The notes beneath the pieces are model-generated. The model worked only from the letters and a program-made list of their open reading frames with translations, made no database searches and was not told the origin of the DNA. From Podarcis pityusensis (taxonomy: Eukaryota): a stretch of 64,000 bases of DNA. The translations under genes were made by a program, and so were the position numbers. Every line of letters starts with the position of its first letter. Position 1 is the stretch's first letter. The DNA is taken from the NCBI GenBank assembly GCA_964106645.2, contig OZ067044.1; one strand, 5' to 3'. Below are positions 1 to 64,000 of this stretch, piece by piece.

Positions 1-2894
1 CAAACACCAAGCTTGTGGGCCACATACCACAACCTGCATTTCAATATGTGCAGACCATGACTGTCTCAAACTGGACAACAAATATCCTGATGCAAACCAC
101 CCTTGTGATAGAGCGTTACACAGGGACATTAAAAGCACAGCTTGTTCATTTGCTGTAGTTGCAGAGCGAGAAACCCAGGTAAGGAAAAAACAACTAAAGA
201 GGCCACTTGACTCAGTTTCCAGGGAAGAGTCAGCAGTAGTGGGCTCTGTTCTGGCTCTGATGATAGCCCAAGCACCTCCCTTGTTAAGTTTTAGGTGCTC
301 AGGTAAGGCCTTTGTGTTTGCCTCAGCTCTAGCCCCACTTCCCACCAGCATGTAGCCCCTGACAGATTGTCCCCAAGGGAATGCAGCCCTCAGCACACAA
401 CAGTTTATCTATTCCTATTCTGTGCTAAGATCCTCTGCTGATTGTTGTTTTACAAAAATAAAATAAGATCTATTTTACTGAACTGCCAAGTGGCTCTTGC
501 ATAAGATACCTGAGCAACTGGAGATCTCTTCCTGTACCCTCCGGACTAACACTGACATCGCTGAGAGAATCAGCAGCAGTGGGACAAGAATCATGGCAAT
601 ATTCTGATAATTCAAGGGAATTGTTGAAAAGGACGTCCATTATTAAGGGGTAAACTCATTGCCATCACCAAAATGGCCATTTTCACATTATACTGATGGA
701 TCAGAAGAATGGCATTGTGAGTTTCATCCAATTGTTATATGATTATCTTCATTAAAACACTTCAATCCAATTACAACAATTGATATCCCCCATCCAATTC
801 ATATTGTCAACCCTTGTGCTGCCTAATGATGAGTTGATGAGCTTTCATCAGGATAGTCCTGCACCCTCTCTCTCTCTCCCTCCTTCCCCCCCAAATTGAA
901 GATGTCACTGAAGATTAAAATTAGACCTCACATTTGCAAATGGATTGTTTTCATTACAAAGCTAGTATTAGTGCTTAATTATATCACATGCACTCAGGTA
1001 CATACCATTGCCTAGCAATACATATCATTAAATCCAAAAATAATTAGCTGACCTTTTCAGAAAGTGGTTTCCATGTCAGGTCTTTGACCTTCTTAGATTT
1101 TGCCTCAAACTTTTGGCACACCATCAAGTGCAAAATTAGGACTGATAATAAAGGCGAGACTCGTAGTGGCTTGAACTGATTCACCAGGCAGTGATGACAG
1201 CATTTGAAATGTGTTAAAGGCTCTAATGTAAATTATTTAGATTCTCTGCATGACTCATGATGGAAACTCCTTCTGCTTGAAGAGCCCAATCAATCCTCTT
1301 GCTTGATGGCAATTATAATTGAAGACAACAGCAGTCATAGGGGCAAATATTGTTCAGCCATCTCATTCTCTTACCAGCGTGCAGATATAATTGGGGCAGC
1401 TCTCTCTTTCATTGTTACCGCAGAATCACATTACAATGATTTAACCATGTAGTCCGCAAATAGGAATCCTTCTAAATCTTCAGGAGAATGTGTGGAAAAT
1501 TCAGCAGATATATTATGGGGATAATTATCCAGCCTCAGAACAATATGATGCCTTAGCTATTCTCATACATCATGTGTGCTAGAATATCCCTTTCAGTGAT
1601 GTGAGCAGTAAACCAAGTACTTCAAATCTGCAAAGAACATCTGCTCTATATTTGCTTCATTGCCTTGTCAATGGGGGTCTTACAATTAATTTCTTAATGC
1701 AATATATTTTGCGCATCATAAATGTGATGATTTTGAAAGCCTTACCTATCTGAAGTTTTGCGCATATATATATATATATCCAACAACCCCAAACTATCTA
1801 AAATCTCTCTCAATAGAAGTATTCAGCCAGCAGCGTTCAACATCAAGGAGGAAAAAAATGTTCTACAGAGCCATTATCTTAATAATCAGTTTTGCAAACC
1901 CAGTTAGAAAGACACTTTTAAGATAAATTAGGAAAGTGGAGGGGTTGTCACTAAAACATGCATGTAGTGAAGGGAATGAATTCAAAGGAGTGAAATGCCA
2001 ATGAAACAGTTCAGAAAGTATAAGAAGCTGCCACAAGATCAAACACACACTTTCCTGAGTATTATTATTTTTTTAGTCTATGTCATAAAACTCTCATGTT
2101 TCTTGGCAGTTTTAGAAAGTGGGAGTGGTGATTATTTTAACTATTATCTCCAGAAATAATGTTTTTGCAGAAGCTGATTTAATGAGGTAAGGTCTGGTGA
2201 TCTGCTAATTAAAATTCTAAAATTAGAACAAATGACAAATGTGGTGTCAGAATTTCCTGGCTGAAGAAGAACCTGCAAGTTAACAGTGATCAATGAATAG
2301 CTTTGGCTTCATGACACTGCATATTCATTTCCTGTACCTCCTCTTTTATCTGTTAATTACTACCACTTTTTGGATTAGGAGTAACGGAATCTAGATATTT
2401 TCCAACTGAAAATTCCCCATGAATATGTATCACTTGGCTAATGTGTGGCGGATTGCGAGAGGACACAATACCCTATATCCTGGATTAAAAATGTCTTTGA
2501 GAGACATTTTGACAGGAAAAGTGTCATGATTCAAAGTACATATTTTTGAAAAAAAAGATTTCAAAGCTCAGTGTGTGTTTCTTGTTCATGAAAAGGAAAA
2601 ATACACAGATCCAAAAAGAAAAATGTAGACGGAACTCATCAGAAAGATGAAGAATGGTGTAATAGAACATCTAACACGAGTTGACACAGATTTGATCTGG
2701 ACATGAAACAACCAGTTTGACATAACCTGTGAACCTCTGCCCCTGGAAGATGGCAAGACGAATATAGTTGCCAAGATTCTGTTTCAAATAGTTATGAGCT
2801 ACCAGGACCAGAGTTCAAGCTACAGATAGAACGAAACTGAGGGATAGGGAACGTGCCTGAGAGCCAATTGCAACTGATATTTTGTTATGTGCAA

Positions 2895-2960
2895 TATGCA
2901 GAAGTAATCCCCCATTGAATTCAATGGGACTGACTCCCAGGCAAATGTGTTTAGGAGTGC
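2895..2960. repeat. Short palindromic interspersed repeat family centred on CCCATTGAA.TCAATGGG (other copies ~3740-3850, 4725-4770, 16650-16770, 20585-20660, 25650-25780, 52110-52200)
   Basis: Recurrent AAGTAA.(T/C)CC(C/T)A(T/C)TGAA...AATGGG.CTTACT motif seen at many positions. Confidence 0.6.
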
Positions 2961-3039
2961 TGCCTTGGGGAGCAATTCAGCATAGCACTATGGCAATTGT
3001 TCTGTCCACAAAGGTTATTCTGCTTGCCAGACAGAACAA

Positions 3040-3052
3040 TATTATTATTATT

Positions 3053-3085
<33 letters not shown>

Positions 3086-3180
3086 TAAATTGGTATACCA
3101 CCCTATACCCACAGATCTCAGGGCAGTTCACAACATAAAATCAAAATATAAAAAACACAAAACACATAATGAAAATAAAA
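3040..3180 (-). mobile_element. L2-type LINE 3' tail with (ATT)n(CAT)n microsatellite
   Basis: The - strand reads TTTTATGTTGTGAACTGCCCTGAGATC..GGGTGGTATACCAATTT followed by a trinucleotide tract (3040-3085). Confidence 0.6.
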
Positions 3181-3969
3181 ACGAAGGCAACACAATAACC
3201 CACTCACTGTTCTGTGGTCCTCCCAACTCCCCCCCAGCTAATGCGGGGGTTCAGAGGGAGAAAAGGGGAGGGGAGCTCAAATGTGCTTATGGAAACCCTT
3301 GCATTGGCATTAGCTGAATCCTGCCTTTAATTATTGACATGGACATCTCAAGGGGCTAAGGTATAATCTTAACAATCTGTCTGAACAGAACAAGGATTTG
3401 AGCCAAGTAGCAGGAAGGATCAGGGATGGATACATCCAGGCAGGTAGCAGAGATTCCTGAAGCAGACATAGTGAAGTTGGTTTCAGAAGCATTTAGTGAG
3501 TGAACTTGCTTCAAGAGAAATATCAAAAAATGCAGCTAATCACTGGTTTAGACAGTAGATCATGATTTAAGAAGACCAAGTTGTGGGAAACTGACCATGC
3601 CACCTGCAGTCAACTGACCCTGGTCTCCTACACATAGCTCTCAGTGGTGTGGAAGCCACTATCCCATGGTGCCTTTGTACACCCTGGGGATTGCTTAAAA
3701 TTTTAAATATCACATCTTCTGTTAGAGATATGGGTTTGCGTCCAATGTTAGTTCTGTGCAGAATAGACCCATTAAAATTCATGGACATGACTAATTTAGC
3801 TTCATTAATTCCATTAATTCATTGATTTGAGTAGAACTTAATGAGCTAGGGAAGGGGAATTTGACTCTGTTTTCATTTAAGTTGCACTTTGTCAAACAAT
3901 ATACAACCAAAATTTGCAAGTTTCTGAATTTTGCAATGTAGATCTCCAGCCAAATGCCCATACTAGCGC

Positions 3970-46734: not shown

Positions 46735-47842
46735 GTTGGTTTCCAGGTGGAAAAATCAAAATTGGAAACAGAATTGTTAGATCCAAAAACTAAGAATTTG
46801 TCAAGAATGTATAACTTGCTGTTGAAATGGAACACTCAGGATGAAATGGTGAAATCAGCTATGATTAAATGGGCACAAGATGTTGGACATAACATAATGA
46901 TGGCTGACTGGGAACAGTTATGGACCACAGGTATGAAATTCACGGCATGTAATGCCCTAAGAGAAAATTTAATGAAAATGATTTATAGGTGGTACATGAC
47001 ACCAGTCAAGCTTGCAAAAATTTACCATTTGCCCGACAATAAATGTTGGAAATGTAATGAGACTGAAGGTACATTCTTTCACCTTTGGTGGACATGCCCA
47101 AGGATTAAGACATTCTGGGAGATGATTTATAACGAAATGAAAAAGGTATTTAAATATACCTTCCTGAAGAAACCAGAGGCCTTTCTCCTGGGCATGGTCG
47201 GCCAATTGGTGCCAAAGAAGGATAGAACTTTTTTTATATATGCAACAACAGCAGCAAGAATACTCATCGCGAAGTATTGGGAGACACAAGATTTACCCAC
47301 CCGGGAAGAATGGCAGATGAAGTTGATGGACTATATGGAATTGGCGGAAATGACTGGCAGAATCCGAGACCAGGGAGAAGAGTCGGTGGAAGAAGATTGG
47401 AAAAAGTTTAAAGACTATTTACAGAAATATTGTAAAATTAATGAATGTTAGAAAAATGTTGGAATGAAGTTATATGGCTTTAGCAGAAATGTTATAAGGA
47501 ATTAAGTATAAATAGATTAATAGAGAATTAAAGGGAAAAATAATGTTAGAATGTGTTAAGATAATTATAGGATAGAAAACAGAGGAAGATGGAAAGGAAT
47601 TGCTGAAACAATGATCAGAAGTGGAATACAAAAAGGGAGGTGTGAGGAGGTTGTGGAAATAAGTGAATGAAAGATAAGATATTGAAATTGTTTGATGTGT
47701 TTAACTGTTTTTGTTTTGTTTTGTTAGTTTAATGTGTTAGTGTTATGTAGTGTTTTTGTATTGTATTGTATTGTTTTTGTAGTGTTTAAATTGTTGGAAA
47801 AGTAATAAATATTATTTTTTAAAAAATAAAAAATAAAAAAAT
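46735..47842 (+). mobile_element. 5'-truncated L1 (second lineage) with intact ORF2 C-terminus, 3' UTR and A-rich tail
   Basis: ORF 46747-47451 aligns by eye to the ORF2 C-terminus (FTAC..L.ENLMKM.YRWY.TP.KLAK, KCWKC...H.WW.C, KKPEAFLLG). A-rich tail 47821-47846; TSD (T)AAAACTG at 46727-46734 and 47842-47849. Confidence 0.93.
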
Positions 47843-56277: not shown

Positions 56278-56882
56278 TGCAGTCATTGCTTTTAGCCCCG
56301 ACTTGCCTTGAGCTTTTTTATCTTATTTCACAAACACAACTAAATGGAGATAGTTTAAACACTCTGCTGTTCCATCAATGCAATATGAGTGAAAGCTTAA
56401 CAGGAGTGTTCTTTTAAAAGCACTGCAACAGGTCTTCACTAGAAATGTGATTGAGAAAGAAAAGGAAAGGAATAGCAATTTGATTATTGATTTAACTGTG
56501 AATGAAGAAGGGAGAAAGATGAGGCTATTTTTTTCATGACTTGAAGTGAATTGTTCTACACAGCCAAATAAAAGTAAAATGTGGAATGGACATAGCTTGG
56601 GGGGGGGAGGGGCTGCTTCATCAAACTCTCTAGCTGTTGCCACCTGGACTAGGACCATGTAAAAATGTATTTTAGTTCTTCAATAACTGCACTTAGTCCT
56701 AGTTAATTTTCAACCCCAAGTGCTAGTGCTTATCTCTACCTGTGTAGGACTACTTTCTTCTACATAAAATTAATCAGGCATTGAAGTAATCTTTGAAGGC
56801 CCTTCTCCAGGGGCCACTGCCTTCTGAGAGTACATGACAGAAAATTAGGAAGAGGGCCTTCATAACCAACACTTCATCTGTG

Positions 56883-58349
56883 GACTTCCGGCGAGCGTGA
56901 ACTCGCAGCGGGTGGGGATTTTGCCGCTCGGAAAATCCCAAGCTACTTAGGGGGAGAAGGGGGGTGCAGAAGGGCGTGAAAGCCCCCCAATTACCTCTTG
57001 AAAGGTGTCAAGAGGGCTAGGATCCCAGCAAGACCACAAGCAGCTCGCTTGGCCGTCAGGTAACTTCAAACAAGTGAAGCGAAGAGAACGGCGGAGCGGA
57101 GCGGCAGGTCTAGGGGAAGCCATTACCTACCCCCAAGCAGCGAAGCCCCGGTCTCGCGGAGAGAAGCGCTGCGCTCTCAAACCAGATGAAACCTGGGATT
57201 AATTTGACTCGGCAAATGGACAGAACTAAAAGAATTCCGGGGGCTTAAGAAAACAGTGGAGTTCGGCGTTATTCGAAATCTACAAGGCGCAAGGTAATCT
57301 TCAGAGCGGAGAAAGGCAGTGAAATCTATTAGCGGGTCACATCCGTTTCCCTGAAAAGCTGCAACATTAAAGTAGCCGGCGGGGGGAAGTTACAAAGTAT
57401 CAAGCGCTGGCCGTATTTAAACAGGGAACAGAAAGTACTATTTGATGAACTGTAGATCCCTAAGGAGCTGAGGGGGGGAAAAACGAAGGAAGAAAGACCC
57501 GTCTCTCCTCATAGCAGCGGAGAAAGCGGAAGTGTAGGACCTGATGTGATTATAGGAACTAAAAGACGTAATAACTGGAAAATACAACTAAATGAGAGTG
57601 TATTGAGGGAAACCACCTCTGTTTGGCAGTGTCATTTGGAACTGGGGTGCTGTTGAACCCAACGGATATTTAAGGAGTTCTTTAAAACCACTCTTTCAGT
57701 TCCGGGAGTTGGCTTTAACAAAGAAGGTGTTGGCTTCGATAAAGACAAAGAAGGACATCTAGTGGACAAAATAGGATAAAACAACTGGTTCTCTCTGTGT
57801 TTGTTTTCATTACTATCTATTCAACGTTTGACTTTACAGACTTGGGGATTTTCCTCTGTGTGCTTTCTCAATCTTGACAAATCTTAGCTAATAGGAATAG
57901 AACCTACTGGATCAGACAGACTTCAACGGATAGAACACCACTTTTGTCATCTTCATTTAAGCTGGAAAAATCCTCATATAATATTGGTGCATAGGACTGT
58001 AGAGGCGATGGTAAATTTGAGTATAAACTGGGACTGTCAATATTAACCACAAGAAAAAAGCCACAAAGCAAATATCTGGACTAGCCTGAGTGGAGGCAAG
58101 AAGAAGAGTGGAAGAACGGATGGAATGTGGATAACTCCTCTTTGGACTTGCCATTACTGCTAATACTATAGGGGGGGGGCATGATATTGAGGGCTGTGTT
58201 AAACTAGATGGAAATATTTGGGACTGGGCAAAACCCGTTGTTCTTATTTAACCTCTTGGATTAGGGAGAGAGGAAGGGGCTTAGTTGACAACACGTAATT
58301 GATAAGTATAAATTTGAAGAGTGGGGACTTTTTGAGTTTTATAGACACA
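56883..58349 (+). promoter_or_regulatory. L1 5' UTR / putative internal promoter
   Basis: Region between the TSD and the ORF1 ATG. The first ~650 bp are CpG-rich relative to the flanks, with an ETS-type ACTTCCGG at 56884-56891. Promoter function is inferred from L1 biology. Confidence 0.7.
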
Positions 58350-59306
58350 ATGTCGAACACAGCAAAGAGAGCTGAGGGAGGGACACCAATAGAAAGAAAG
58401 GCATCCAAACAGGAAACAGACTTCAAAGCAGATATTTTAAGAATGTTTGCGGAAATTAAACAAAGTGAGAAAAACCTAGAAGTAAAATTAGAACAAGTAG
58501 ACAATAAGATAGGGAAAATGGACAAAAAAATGGACGAAACAGTTAATGAACTAAAAGGGCAAATAAAGGAAGTATTTAGGAGGACACAAGCTGTAGAAGA
58601 AGGTTTGAAAAAAACAAGATTAGAAATGAGAGAGGTGAGACGTGAAGAGGACAAACTAAGAGCAGAGGTGTTAGAATTGAATAAAGTGCAAGAAGATATG
58701 AAAGATTCAATAGCTATGCATGAACTAAGACAGAGGGAGAATAATTTGAGACTTAGGGCGGTACCAGAAACACAAGGAGAAAACATTAAAGAGAAATTAA
58801 TAGCTGAGTTAGCACAATGGATGGAACTACCAACAGATGAGATAGAAAGGACGATACAATCTGCCTTTAGACTAAAAGTGAAAACAACTAGGGCTAAAAA
58901 ATTTGTGGGTGATTGTCTGATTACATTTAGAGATAAGGAAATGAGAAACATGATCCTGCAAAGAAATAGAGAAAAAAGGTTGTGCATCAATGGGAATTAT
59001 ATAATAATTTTTAAAGACATACCAATCAGAATTCTGAAACGTAGAGAGTCGTACAAGGCACTTGTGCAAACATTAAAGAAAAATAACATTGAGTTTAAAT
59101 GGGAATTCCCGGAAGGGATCTCATTTACTTACAGGAGTAAGAGGCACAGGTTGATCAGTCCAGAGGAAACTGGGAAGTTTTTGAGAAAATATAAAGAGTT
59201 GAGGTTAGAAAAAGAAGAAGAAAAAGGGGAAGAGGCAGCAGGGGGCCCAGACTCCGAGGAAGAAACAGAAAGTAGAGGAGGAGAAGAAGAGGAACAAGAG
59301 GTTTAA
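58350..59306 (+). CDS. L1 ORF1p (coiled-coil + RRM/CTD-type RNA-binding protein), 318 aa from first ATG
   Basis: Heptad-rich N-terminal half, then RENNLRLRAVPE (L1 ORF1 RxNNLRIxGxPE-like motif), IIIFKDIP and FKWEFPEG. Lies directly upstream of ORF2. The ORF track opens at a TTG at 58299; the first ATG is 58350. Confidence 0.92.
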   Translation: MSNTAKRAEGGTPIERKASKQETDFKADILRMFAEIKQSEKNLEVKLEQVDNKIGKMDKKMDETVNELKGQIKEVFRRTQAVEEGLKKTRLEMREVRREEDKLRAEVLELNKVQEDMKDSIAMHELRQRENNLRLRAVPETQGENIKEKLIAELAQWMELPTDEIERTIQSAFRLKVKTTRAKKFVGDCLITFRDKEMRNMILQRNREKRLCINGNYIIIFKDIPIRILKRRESYKALVQTLKKNNIEFKWEFPEGISFTYRSKRHRLISPEETGKFLRKYKELRLEKEEEKGEEAAGGPDSEEETESRGGEEEEQEV

Positions 59307-59357
59307 AAATCAGTCAAAATATAAAAGGGAAAATAAGTAAGACTAAATTCATTTATT

Positions 59358-62300
59358 ATGGTATTAAAAATTTGTAGTTGGAATATTAATGGGATAAATG
59401 ATAAGAAAAAACGAAATAAAACTGTACAAATACTAAAAAAAGAAAACCTAGACATCATCTGTTTACAAGAGACACACATAGCAAGAAGACATAAAAGAGT
59501 ACTGATAAACAAAAGATTGGGAAATGAGTTTATCTCCTCAGATAAAGATAAAAAAAGAGGAGTGGTCATATATATTAAAAAGCAAATCGAAGCGCAACAA
59601 ATTTTTAAAGACGAGGAGGGAAGGATAATGGCGGTCCAAATTAAGTGGCAGGGAGAAAACCTAATCATAATCGGGTTATATGCTCCAAATGATAACAAGT
59701 CGGATTTTTTTAAAAATTTAGAAGAAAAACTAGCAGAGTACGCAGATCAGAAAATGATGATATTGGGTGATATGAACGGGGTGGTGTCCTTAGAAATGGA
59801 CAGACTTAGGGAGGGAAGTGGTAAGGATGGGAAGCTACCCAGAACTTTCTTTTCATTGGTTAAGAACTGTAACCTGATAGATAGCTGGAGACTCAGACAC
59901 CCACTGGTAAAACAGTTTACGTACTACTCTGAACCTAATCAGTCACAGTCCCGAATCGACCAGATTTGGACCTCAAATGAGCTGACTCCAAGAATTTTAA
60001 GGGTGGAGATCCAAGCTAAAACTATATCGGATCATAATCCAATAAAATTGGAGTTGAAAGGCTGGGAGGAGAGAACTTTTAGGTGGAGACTAAAAGACTA
60101 TCTTCTGGACGATCAAGAAGTGGTTGATAAAGCCCAGAGAAGGTTGATAGATTATTTTAAGGAAAACATGAATAAGGGTACCAAAACAAAGGTGGTATGG
60201 GATGCAAGCAAGGCAGTAATGAGGGGCTTCTTTATCCAGCAAAACACGATTAAAAATAAAGGAAGAGAAAAATGGAAAAAAGAGATATTAAAGCAGATAA
60301 TGGATAATGAACAAAAGTTAGTCCAAAAACCAAATAGCAAGAGGATAAAGGAGAATATTAAAGCATTGCAAGCGCAGTTTGCAATGTTGATAAATAGAGA
60401 AGTGGAATGGAACATCAAAAAATTGAGACTAAGAAGTTTTGAATACTCAAATAAATCAGGGAAGCTGCTAGCATGGCAGATAAAAAAAAGGAAGGAACAG
60501 AGTACTATAAATAAAATAATAGTGGATGGTGAAGAAAAAACTAACCCCAAGGAAGTTAGGAAAGCATTTGTGGACTACTATAGTGGACTATATAATAATA
60601 GAGAGAGACATAATTTGAGGAGGATTGAAAGATTCTTAAAGGATAAAAAGGTTCAGAAGATACCAGCAGAGAAAAAAGAACAGCTGAACGCTCCAGTAGA
60701 GATAGAAGAAATAGAAAAAGTAATAAAAGAACTAAAAAGAGGGAAAGCCCCAGGCCCGGATGGGTTTACGGCTAGTTATTACAAAGAAATGAAGGCTGTA
60801 TTGCTGCCCCCATTGAAGGAAGTGATAAATAACATCTTAAAAGAAAGAGAAATACCAGAAACATGGAAAGAGGCATTCATTACATTAATCCCAAAACAAG
60901 ATGCGGATTTATTGCAAGTTAAAAATTACAGGCCGATTTCATTGTTGAACATAGATTACAAAATTTTTACAGGAATTTTAGCTAGCAGAATGAAAAATAT
61001 ATTGTTAGATTATGTTCATGGAGACCAAACGGGCTTCCTGCCGGGGAGGCAGATGAAGGATAATATAAGAAACATAATAAATATCATAGAATATTTGTCG
61101 GCCAAGAGTGACAAACAAGCTATACTGATGTTTGTGGATGCAGAGAAAGCATTCGATAACACAAATTGGGATTTTTTGTTAAAAAATCTAGAATACATGG
61201 AGGTGGGTGCAGAGTTTTTTAATGGAATAAAAGCAATCTATACGGAGCAGAAAGCGAAATTGATCATAAACAACGTAGTGTCAGAAGAAATAAGGATAGG
61301 GAAGGGTACAAGGCAGGGATGTCCGCTCTCCCCATTGCTGTTCATAACTGTATTGGAAGTGTTACTTAACTCAATAAGACAAAACAAGAAGATAAAAGGA
61401 ATAACAATTGGACAAAATGAATACAAGGTAAAGGCATTTGCAGACGATTTGCTAATAACAATAGAAGATCCGACGAATTCAATAAAAGAGATATTGGAAG
61501 AACTAGAGCAATTCGGCAAAGTGGCTGGTTTTAAGTTAAATAAAAGTAAGACTAAATTAATGACAAAGAATATAGATCTAAGTACAATTGAAGAAATACA
61601 ACAACAAACAGAGATAGAGGTGGCCAGAAAGGTGAAATATTTAGGAATATGGATAACTCCAAAAAATATAGAACTATTTAAAAATAATTATGAAGTAGTA
61701 TGGAAAGAGATTAAAAAGGATTTGGTGACGTGGGGGAAGCTAAAACTGTCTTTCTGGGGCAGGATAGCCATAATTAAGATGAATGCACTTCCGAGAATGT
61801 TGTTCCTATTCCAGAATATTCCGATAATCAAAGGTACTAAGATATTCAAAGAATGGCAAAGAGAGTTCTCAAAGTACGTATGGCAGGGCAAAAGACCGAG
61901 GATACAGTTTAAATTACTGACAGAGGCAAAAGAAAGGGGGGGATTCGCACTTCCAGATCTGAAACTATATTATGAGGCATCGTGCCTATGCTGGATAAAA
62001 CCGTGGATAAAATTAGATAATAAAGAACTTTTAGATCTGGAAGGCCACGACAATAGATTTGGGTGGCACGCGTATCTATGTTATGAAAAGAAGAAGGTAC
62101 ACAAGGGATTTGAAAGCCACATCTTTAAAGGCCCTTTGATAGAAGTATGGGAGAGGTACAGATTTTTATTGGAACCCAGAGTCCCACACTGGATGTCCCC
62201 ATTAGAAGCCATGAGTGTTAAAAAGACCAACATGAGGGATAAATGGGTTACCTATGAACAGCTGCTAATTAAAGATGGGGGGAAGTGGAAGCTAAAACCA

Positions 62301-63119
62301 TACAACCAGGTTAAGGAAAAGGTGTTTGATTGGTTCCATTACTTTCAAATAAACGAAATGGCTAAGAAGGATATTAAAGATAGAGGATATGCGGAAAAAG
62401 ATTCTAAATTCCAGATTGAGATAATAAATAATGATTATAAAATCCTATCAAAAATGTACAACCAGCTGCTAGAGTGGAATTTAATAGACGAAGAAGTGAA
62501 GTCGGTAATGATACACTGGGCAAAAGACTTCGGTTATAATATCTATTTTGAAGAGTGGGAGAAATTATGGAAAAAAAATCTTAAATTCACGGCATGTGTA
62601 ACGTTGAAGGAAAACTTAATGAAGATGTTATACCGTTGGTACATTACCCCTGCGAAACTAGCAAAAATGTATAAGACATGCAGTAAATGTTGGAAATGCA
62701 GGGAAAATGAAGGGACCTTCTACCACATGTGGTGGGATTGCAAAAAGGTTAAAGGTTTCTGGGAAAAGGTATATACAGAAATGGGAAAAATTTTTAAATA
62801 TACTTTTGAAAAAAAGCCAGAGGCCTTTCTGTTAGGTTTATCAGGAAAAGAGATTAAGAATAAAGATGGCAAATTTTTCCAATATGCAACAACGGCAGCA
62901 AGAGTCCTATTAGCCCAAAACTGGAAACAACAGAAAATACCGACAATAGAGGAGTGGAGAGAGAAACTGTTAGATTATGCGGAACTAGATAGACTGACGG
63001 GAAAAATTAGATATTGGAGAGATCAAAGATTTATGGAGGAATGGGGAAAATTCGTGGAATATCTGGATAATTTAAGTGAGGGACAAATAACGCTAGTAGG
63101 GTTTAAAAGAGCTCTGTGA
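59358..63119 (+). CDS. L1 ORF2p: APE endonuclease + reverse transcriptase + C-terminal Cys/His knuckle, 1253 aa
   Basis: APE motifs SWNINGI, LQETH, GDMN, SRIDQIW, SDHNP; Z-domain KAPGPDGF; RT motifs YRPISLLN, DAEKAFD, GTRQGCPLSPLLF, FADD, KYLGI; CWKC-x8-H-x4-C. No stops or frameshifts. Confidence 0.98.
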   Translation: MVLKICSWNINGINDKKKRNKTVQILKKENLDIICLQETHIARRHKRVLINKRLGNEFISSDKDKKRGVVIYIKKQIEAQQIFKDEEGRIMAVQIKWQGENLIIIGLYAPNDNKSDFFKNLEEKLAEYADQKMMILGDMNGVVSLEMDRLREGSGKDGKLPRTFFSLVKNCNLIDSWRLRHPLVKQFTYYSEPNQSQSRIDQIWTSNELTPRILRVEIQAKTISDHNPIKLELKGWEERTFRWRLKDYLLDDQEVVDKAQRRLIDYFKENMNKGTKTKVVWDASKAVMRGFFIQQNTIKNKGREKWKKEILKQIMDNEQKLVQKPNSKRIKENIKALQAQFAMLINREVEWNIKKLRLRSFEYSNKSGKLLAWQIKKRKEQSTINKIIVDGEEKTNPKEVRKAFVDYYSGLYNNRERHNLRRIERFLKDKKVQKIPAEKKEQLNAPVEIEEIEKVIKELKRGKAPGPDGFTASYYKEMKAVLLPPLKEVINNILKEREIPETWKEAFITLIPKQDADLLQVKNYRPISLLNIDYKIFTGILASRMKNILLDYVHGDQTGFLPGRQMKDNIRNIINIIEYLSAKSDKQAILMFVDAEKAFDNTNWDFLLKNLEYMEVGAEFFNGIKAIYTEQKAKLIINNVVSEEIRIGKGTRQGCPLSPLLFITVLEVLLNSIRQNKKIKGITIGQNEYKVKAFADDLLITIEDPTNSIKEILEELEQFGKVAGFKLNKSKTKLMTKNIDLSTIEEIQQQTEIEVARKVKYLGIWITPKNIELFKNNYEVVWKEIKKDLVTWGKLKLSFWGRIAIIKMNALPRMLFLFQNIPIIKGTKIFKEWQREFSKYVWQGKRPRIQFKLLTEAKERGGFALPDLKLYYEASCLCWIKPWIKLDNKELLDLEGHDNRFGWHAYLCYEKKKVHKGFESHIFKGPLIEVWERYRFLLEPRVPHWMSPLEAMSVKKTNMRDKWVTYEQLLIKDGGKWKLKPYNQVKEKVFDWFHYFQINEMAKKDIKDRGYAEKDSKFQIEIINNDYKILSKMYNQLLEWNLIDEEVKSVMIHWAKDFGYNIYFEEWEKLWKKNLKFTACVTLKENLMKMLYRWYITPAKLAKMYKTCSKCWKCRENEGTFYHMWWDCKKVKGFWEKVYTEMGKIFKYTFEKKPEAFLLGLSGKEIKNKDGKFFQYATTAARVLLAQNWKQQKIPTIEEWREKLLDYAELDRLTGKIRYWRDQRFMEEWGKFVEYLDNLSEGQITLVGFKRAL

Positions 63120-64000
63120 TATTTGTAAGAATATTGTCTAAAGAAAAGGGTGGAAAAGACTTGAATAATGTCAATAGATAGTAGGAGATGCGAAAGTATA
63201 TGTTGATAGACAACGGAGATTTGCGGAGACGCCGAAGGAAGTCTTAAAGAATGAATCGGTTGAATACAAGATGTGGTTTATCTGATTTTTATTTGTTTTG
63301 CTGTAAATTAATAAAAATTATGTTGAAAAAAAAAAAAAAACATAACCAACACTTCATCTGTGAAATGCCTCCCTCCCCATGAAAGATGCAGGTGGAGAAA
63401 CAATGAATCCTGAGTAGGAAGGTAATCTAAAAGTTGTATACTTTTATCCATAGCAATGTTTTATATGCTGTAAGATTATCTGGTCTGTGAATTGTTAGCT
63501 GTATGAGTTTTAAAGATTAGCAGTTCACCAGTAATTGAGTATAAAAAATAAATTGCATAGGTGGCCTCTAGTTGACAGCCTGCCATTAAACAGCAGAGCT
63601 GTTACAGTTCCTAAGGAAGTGACTATTTGCCTTGAGAGGTTTACTGTTATGCCAAGTTGACATTAGTGACCATTTCTTTTCTGATGGGACAGTAGAATCC
63701 TCAAACAGTGGAGCAAAAGTCTATGGGGGAATATTCTATCTTTGCTCATTGGCCACACTTAGAAAACAATGAGCTGTCAACCATCGGAGTGTAAATTTTG
63801 AGTGGTTGGGAGGTGCAGCATTGTTGTCAGTTAAACAAAGAAGCTAGAGGGAAGCGATAAAGAAGTCAAGTTGAGGCTGAGAGGTCAGAAATGATAACAT
63901 ATTGGCAACAAACAGTGGCTGTTCAGGTGAACGAAAAGGGTGCCATAGCTGAAATCACAGAAGGCTGAGAAGGTCTTCAAGACTCAACTAGTGCTCTGAA

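Follow-up and report, generated by a model that had tools for sequence, protein, structure and literature searches.

The window analysed here is a 64,000-nt stretch of DNA from Podarcis pityusensis (GCA_964106645.2, contig OZ067044.1), and near its right-hand end it harbours a full-length L1 retrotransposon, with two open reading frames (ORFs), lying between identical target-site duplications (TSDs). This element, referred to below as the focal L1, was compared with other L1 copies of the same genome, with public sequencing runs and with published L1s, the latter being cited from the accessible parts of the papers concerned. The features of the locus are as follows.

56861–63362, plus strand: focal L1 (lizard clade-1 by its anatomy), both TSDs included; 6,458 bp lie between the TSD copies
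56861–56882, plus strand: left TSD, 22 bp; identical to the right TSD, present once in the empty allele
56883–58349, plus strand: 5' untranslated region (5'UTR), 1,467 bp, 45% GC (45.3%); placed by the sequence start GACTTCCGG and the CpG count
58350–59306, plus strand: ORF1, 318 aa, with predicted coiled coil, RNA recognition motif (RRM), C-terminal domain (CTD) and acidic tail; from the open frame and homology
59307–59357, plus strand: inter-ORF spacer, 51 bp; from the ORF positions
59358–63119, plus strand: ORF2, 1,253 aa, with apurinic/apyrimidinic endonuclease (APE)-type endonuclease, reverse transcriptase (RT) and C-terminal cysteine motif; from the open frame, homology and motifs
59358–60059, plus strand: endonuclease domain (aa 1–234) with N9, E38, Y108, D138, N140, D201 and H226; from alignment with human ORF2p
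60888–61655, plus strand: RT core (aa 511–766) with D594, D696 and D697; from a Pfam match, alignment with human ORF2p and motif positions
62688–62741, plus strand: CX2CX8HX4C motif (aa 1111–1128), the non-mammalian L1 form (PMC5381506); from the motif position
63120–63325, plus strand: 3'UTR, 206 bp, with AATAAA at 63310–63315; from the sequence
63326–63340, plus strand: poly(A) tail, A15; 15 pure A
63341–63362, plus strand: right TSD, 22 bp; exact match to the left copy

Both copies of the TSD, CATAACCAACACTTCATCTGTG, are identical, cannot be extended, and are the only two occurrences of this sequence in the window. Without its tail the element measures 6,443 bp, and its poly(A) tail and long TSD, together with the lack of long terminal repeats, are those of the L1 clade. 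No 3' transduced sequence was found within the 3'UTR. The first 600 nt of the 5'UTR have a CpG observed/expected ratio of 0.84, compared with 0.21 for the remaining window, and this CpG-rich part of about 600 nt is the predicted internal promoter. Tandem monomers were looked for in the 5'UTR of this copy, and none were present. An earlier note on this DNA had described an unmutated 22-bp TSD, a pure A15 tail, a 5' leader that retains its CpGs, and two open ORFs with endonuclease and RT catalytic motifs, all of which was borne out.

Based on homology, ORF2 has the plan of the L1 clade, with an N-terminal APE endonuclease, RT, a C-terminal cysteine motif and similarity to L1 ORF2p. The endonuclease residues listed above, which we take from human L1 work to be the catalytic ones, align with those of the human protein. 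ORF2 matches the Pfam families RVT_1 (E 7e-42) and Exo_endo_phos (E 2e-18); human L1 ORF2p (L1HS, PDB 8uw3) aligns to residues 5–1209 (E 1e-177), whereas the match to R2 reaches only E 1e-25. Human L1 shares with the focal L1 the two ORFs, the endonuclease and RT catalytic residues and the poly(A) tail. The endonuclease loop region of the lizard ORF2 differs from the human one, and the position of the PIP (PCNA-interacting protein) box is occupied by Arg in all 27 intact lizard ORF2s, in contrast to Gln in human L1. For ORF1, the RRM and CTD of human ORF1p give a weak match (E 0.002–0.004), and no Pfam family scored above its cut-off. The coiled coil, RRM and CTD expected of the L1 clade were assigned through strong similarity to proteins already named as L1 RRM proteins: ORF1 proteins of wall lizards (Podarcis) in UniRef/nr, belonging to sister families, share 58–75% identity, those named "L1 transposable element RRM domain" being at 58–72%, and the best database match reaches 79%. 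No protein of the exact family of the focal L1 was found among the UniRef/nr ORF1 matches. A 247-aa antisense frame inside ORF1 was rejected as a probable by-product of the A-rich sense strand.

The nearest named relatives thus come from Podarcis, and the anatomy fits the clade-1 L1s of Anolis carolinensis (families L1_AC1–15), used here by their published description (Boissinot & Sookdeo 2016, PMC5381506), so that the label of a lizard L1 given in the earlier note is appropriate. According to this description, clade-1 elements are about 6.4 kb long and have a long 5'UTR (0.8–1.5 kb, about 45% GC), a short spacer and an ORF2 with CX2CX8HX4C; the corresponding values for the focal L1 are 6,443 bp in total, a 5'UTR of 1,467 bp at 45.3% GC, a spacer of 51 bp, an ORF2 of 3,762 bp and a 3'UTR of 206 bp. 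The Anolis ranges cover its total, ORF1, spacer, ORF2 and 3'UTR lengths, while its 5'UTR is 2 bp above them. As in the lizard genome studied here, several low-copy families are described as active side by side in Anolis (PMC5381506). Differences are found at the 5' end: only the first nine focal bases match the clade-1 consensus GACTTCCGGTGN8ATGGCG, after which the focal L1 continues with CG instead of TG and lacks the downstream ATGGCG, and its CpG density forms one continuous block of about 600 nt, in contrast to the two clear islands of Anolis (PMC5381506).

Contigs from six of 21 public sequencing runs were placed on the locus. An exact empty allele was found in X2 (same organism, other sample), where 56860 is joined to 63341 with 22 shared letters, and X3, from another organism, has the same joint, again with 22 shared letters. 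Since the empty site in X2 and X3 carries exactly one copy of the 22-mer, the TSD is not due to chance. A contig of X4 crosses the empty site with small changes, and contigs of X6 and X10 link the left flank to right-flank sequence, all three runs being from other organisms. Parts of the 5'UTR and ORF1 are uncovered in X3, which was not taken as evidence of absence. In X1 (same organism), the left-flank contig stops at the TSD and branches there: a 59-bp contig of depth 15.6 leads into the element and another contig leads into the right flank, so that X1 reads as a heterozygote with a filled and an empty allele. The empty-site check across individuals and related organisms proposed in the earlier note was in this way run in silico, with empty sites in X2, X3, X4, X6 and X10. 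Its view of a very recent insertion is supported by these five runs, and its suggestion of polymorphism by the empty allele in the conspecific X2 and by the two forms in X1.

The empty alleles also largely refute the view that the focal L1 is an old insertion preserved by host selection (domesticated) or an artefact of assembly, which is now hardly credible. Domestication would be in line with the low ratio of non-synonymous to synonymous change (pN/pS) between copies, which for the focal ORF2 is 0.09 vs L031 and 0.08 vs L033, two other copies of its family. However, low pN/pS is common to other family copies, reflecting selection on transposing lineages, and the site is empty in the conspecific and in four other organisms. 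An artefact is opposed by the junction contig of X1 and by 17 sites private to the focal L1, because of which it is not a collapsed duplicate.

The 1.515-Gb genome was searched with the focal 3' end, and the best 40 of 975 candidates were scored. At least 12 copies, including the focal L1, share 98–100% identity, followed by a gap down to 76%; L085 and L086, whose flanks agree, are duplicates of one insertion, and the 12 copies thus represent 11 independent insertions. Four family copies are full-length (focal L1, L031, L032, L033), and both ORFs are intact in the focal L1, L031, L033 and the 5'-truncated L081. The focal L1 differs by 0.59% from its nearest sister, L081, by 0.8–0.9% from L088, and by 0.9–1.1% from the youngest cluster (L031, L032, L033, L082–L086), within which the differences are about 0.1–0.7%. 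On the family tree it has its own branch. The 17 private sites, which include 56927, 56929 and 61786, are not found in any long copy covering them, and at 63163 the focal L1 differs from every one of the ten other copies that include this position. The private coding changes comprise five synonymous and two non-synonymous ones (P=0.004 vs 81% non-synonymous expected if neutral). Because of this synonymous excess and the low pN/pS, a functional parent lineage is inferred; most private differences would then come from a purifying-selected parent lineage absent from the assembly, and not from decay after insertion.

The earlier note had proposed a source element, which is not supported: in one assembly, none of the 11 sister copies derives from the focal L1 (progenitor test), the nearest of them is 0.59% away, and the focal 3' flank is not carried elsewhere, with only three other matches in the genome, at 66–75%, and no 3' transduction. 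The focal L1 might still be a current source whose daughters are carried by the alternative haplotype or by further animals. A source is favoured by its intact ORFs, by the CpG-rich promoter region, by the signal of purifying selection and by the fact that X1 and X2 each contain a 5' junction of the focal family (56882–56914) with a flank that, by eye, is unlike those of L031–L033. Since these junctions are unmatched, the assembly lacks some of the existing full-length copies, and the junctions appear to mark further polymorphic full-length insertions of the family. On the other hand, besides the distance to the nearest sister and the flank matches just given, none of the long copies covering the 17 private sites shares them, ten of ten other copies differ at 63163, and the collapsed family contigs in X1 and X2 carry sister-cluster alleles. 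A current source is accordingly improbable.

The rarity of intact copies implied by the earlier note does not apply to lizards. Both ORFs are intact in 19 of the 103 distinct L1 copies examined here, a sample partly picked for full length, and full-length copies are common among polymorphic Anolis L1s (1,089/2,508, about 40%; PMC5389967), where full-length L1s are described as mostly polymorphic and rarely fixed (PMC3787681, PMC5389967). A sister family with about 77% identity is represented by no fewer than 40 copies at 99–100% over 361 bp, and 15 of its fetched copies have both ORFs intact; the focal family is hence not the most active L1 of the genome. It is a small family that coexists with a larger, younger sister family.

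Considering all of these results, it is very likely that the focal L1 is a polymorphic, full-length clade-1 L1 with both ORFs open, probably a recent insertion by target-primed reverse transcription, predicted to be mobile, and without a daughter among its 11 sisters. Several points weigh against this reading. The organism is represented by two samples (X1, X2); X1 is possibly the source sample, and its filled-allele contig has 30 and 29 letters beside the junction, below the 31-letter bar. The count of family copies is a lower bound. No close outgroup fixes the direction of the private changes, and K794 is the sister-family state. Two private changes could reduce activity, namely Ala810 in ORF2, a position held by Val in 25 and by Ile in one of the 26 other intact lizard ORF2s, and a 14-bp deletion at 57519 in the 5'UTR, the missing bases being present in all four sister copies covering that place.

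The same two changes are the basis of a further explanation, according to which the focal L1, for all its intact appearance, is inactive owing to V810A, the 14-bp deletion or silencing of the locus. Ala810 is unique among the 27 intact ORF2s, the aligned residue of human ORF2p is Ile, the deletion is private to the focal L1, and no daughters were found. However, every catalytic residue is kept, V810A is conservative, the deletion lies just past the most CpG-rich 600 nt, and few daughters are expected of a very young, low-frequency insertion. Inactivity is thus possible but rather unlikely, and the focal L1 is predicted, with modest confidence, to be retrotransposition-competent in an assay.

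The insertion as read here would follow the mammalian L1 integration model (PMC2912911, PMC12016303). By analogy with that model, transcription would start in the CpG-rich 5'UTR and stop at the AATAAA/poly(A) end, and ORF1p and ORF2p would bind their own RNA. A bottom-strand nick by the endonuclease at TT|CATA would be followed by reverse transcription, primed on poly(A), as far as the first base of the element, and a second nick 22 nt away would give rise to the 22-bp TSD.

Target sites were examined in the insertions of L031–L172 plus the focal L1. Of 105 copies called, two were duplicates and 32 failed the filter for a clean TSD (at least 11 bp, following an A-rich tail); the other 71 sites were used, while seven further loci were left out, having no 3' end or no match at 88%. 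T or C occupies position −1 in 65/71 sites, and position −2 shows no T bias (T in 16/71). At +1, A is found in 34/71 and G in 23/71; at +2, A in 54/71; at +3, A in 33/71 and G in 28/71; at +4, A in 56/71. The nick consensus of lizard clade-1 L1s is Y|RARA. By the convention used here, A residues to the left were counted into the TSD, so that A is under-represented at −1. Exact TT|AAAA occurs at a single one of the 71 sites. Sites of the human-defined types T|AAAA, C|AAAA and T|GAAA make up 10/71 (13/71 with a 5-base shift, 13/86 unfiltered), in contrast to 569/897 (63%) of human germline L1s (PMC12016303), a comparison made between different pipelines and on genomic copies that have already passed through selection. 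The pre-insertion site of the focal L1, TT|CATA, has C at +1 as do 7/71 sites; the median TSD length is 17, with 22 or more in 3/71. The focal site and its 22-bp TSD thus lie at the edge of the family pattern. Long TSDs are shared with human L1, for which a peak at 14–16 is described (PMC2912911), as are 5' truncations and 5' inversions.

An inverted 5' segment was detected in 6/88 copies picked by their 3' end. In L088, L103, L114 and L158, a clear TSD encloses the inversion, and the break shows a small deletion or overlap, while no TSD was detected for the inverted copies L154 and L107. The focal-family copy L088:229-6555 (G000:C13, about 42.316–42.322 Mb; 6.3 kb) has nt 121–3940 inverted before nt 3950–end, and a TSD of 18–20 bp. 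Judged by their sequence, the lizard inversions would be structures of the twin-priming type. They are less common than in human L1, where 165/897 (18%) is given (PMC12016303); the difference has P=0.005 when six inversions are counted and P=0.0003 when four are counted. In the literature searched, with early non-mammalian junction papers beyond its reach, no description of lizard L1 target preference, 5' inversions or assays was found. That a lacertid clade-1 endonuclease has a nick preference unlike the human one (Y|RARA), and that twin-priming 5' inversions accompany it, both undescribed for reptile L1, is put forward tentatively, as a nearly balanced case.

Comparison of the 5'UTRs showed about 74% identity between the focal family and sister families over the first 320 nt or so (56883–57200, matching the ends of L036–L048 and L089), and mostly unrelated sequence beyond. 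Near 57060, in the conserved part, there is a donor-like CAG|GTAAC/GTAGC, kept in eight of nine aligned copies. An ORF0-like antisense frame of 58 aa, whose ATG at 57123 is kept in 8/9 aligned copies, was rejected as a conserved ORF because its length ranges from 17 to 78 aa. In the larger sister family, a 434-bp 5'UTR unit is present in one, two and three tandem copies in L042, L036 and L043 (repeat at nt 770–2071 of L043), giving 5'UTRs of about 1,310, 1,742 and 2,179 bp; the accessible Anolis description reports no tandem duplication in 5'UTRs (PMC5381506). The sister-family copy L126:4085-8202 has both ends and, relative to the one-unit form, an internal deletion of ~2.2 kb with short microhomology. 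Splicing was rejected as its cause, the junction having an overlap and no GT-AG.

Two family copies (L081:2777-7897 and L087:7460-7718) lie inside older L1 copies, and the insertion pairs L085/L086 and L089/L090 are duplicated with their flanks, by local segmental or assembly duplication. G000:C19 (38 Mb, 2.5% of the genome) holds 12 of the best 40 5'UTR matches; it may be a W chromosome, which is repeat-rich in lacertids. Within the window, an old L1 ORF2 fragment with 67% identity to the focal L1 is found at 46801–47259. None of the 77 stop-free frames of at least 85 aa in 1–56800 matched Pfam, a test that short exons would escape.

An element like the focal L1 is expected in a lizard genome. 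As one among many intact, polymorphic lizard L1s, it is by itself of small weight; it can serve as a presence/absence marker and possibly as a reagent, for which other intact copies found here are equally suitable. The less ordinary results sit at the level of the family, in the target sites and the 5' inversions. In the literature consulted, cell assays used human L1 and fish L2 even for lizard APOBEC1 (PMC3880073), and a working reptile L1 would therefore fill a gap. If Y|RARA reflects the enzyme, TT|AAAA would be a mammalian specialisation and not a general trait of L1, and the lizard endonuclease would be a natural variant for studies of specificity. If this is true, an intact natural copy would make it possible, for the first time, to test directly how the choice of L1 targets has evolved outside mammals.

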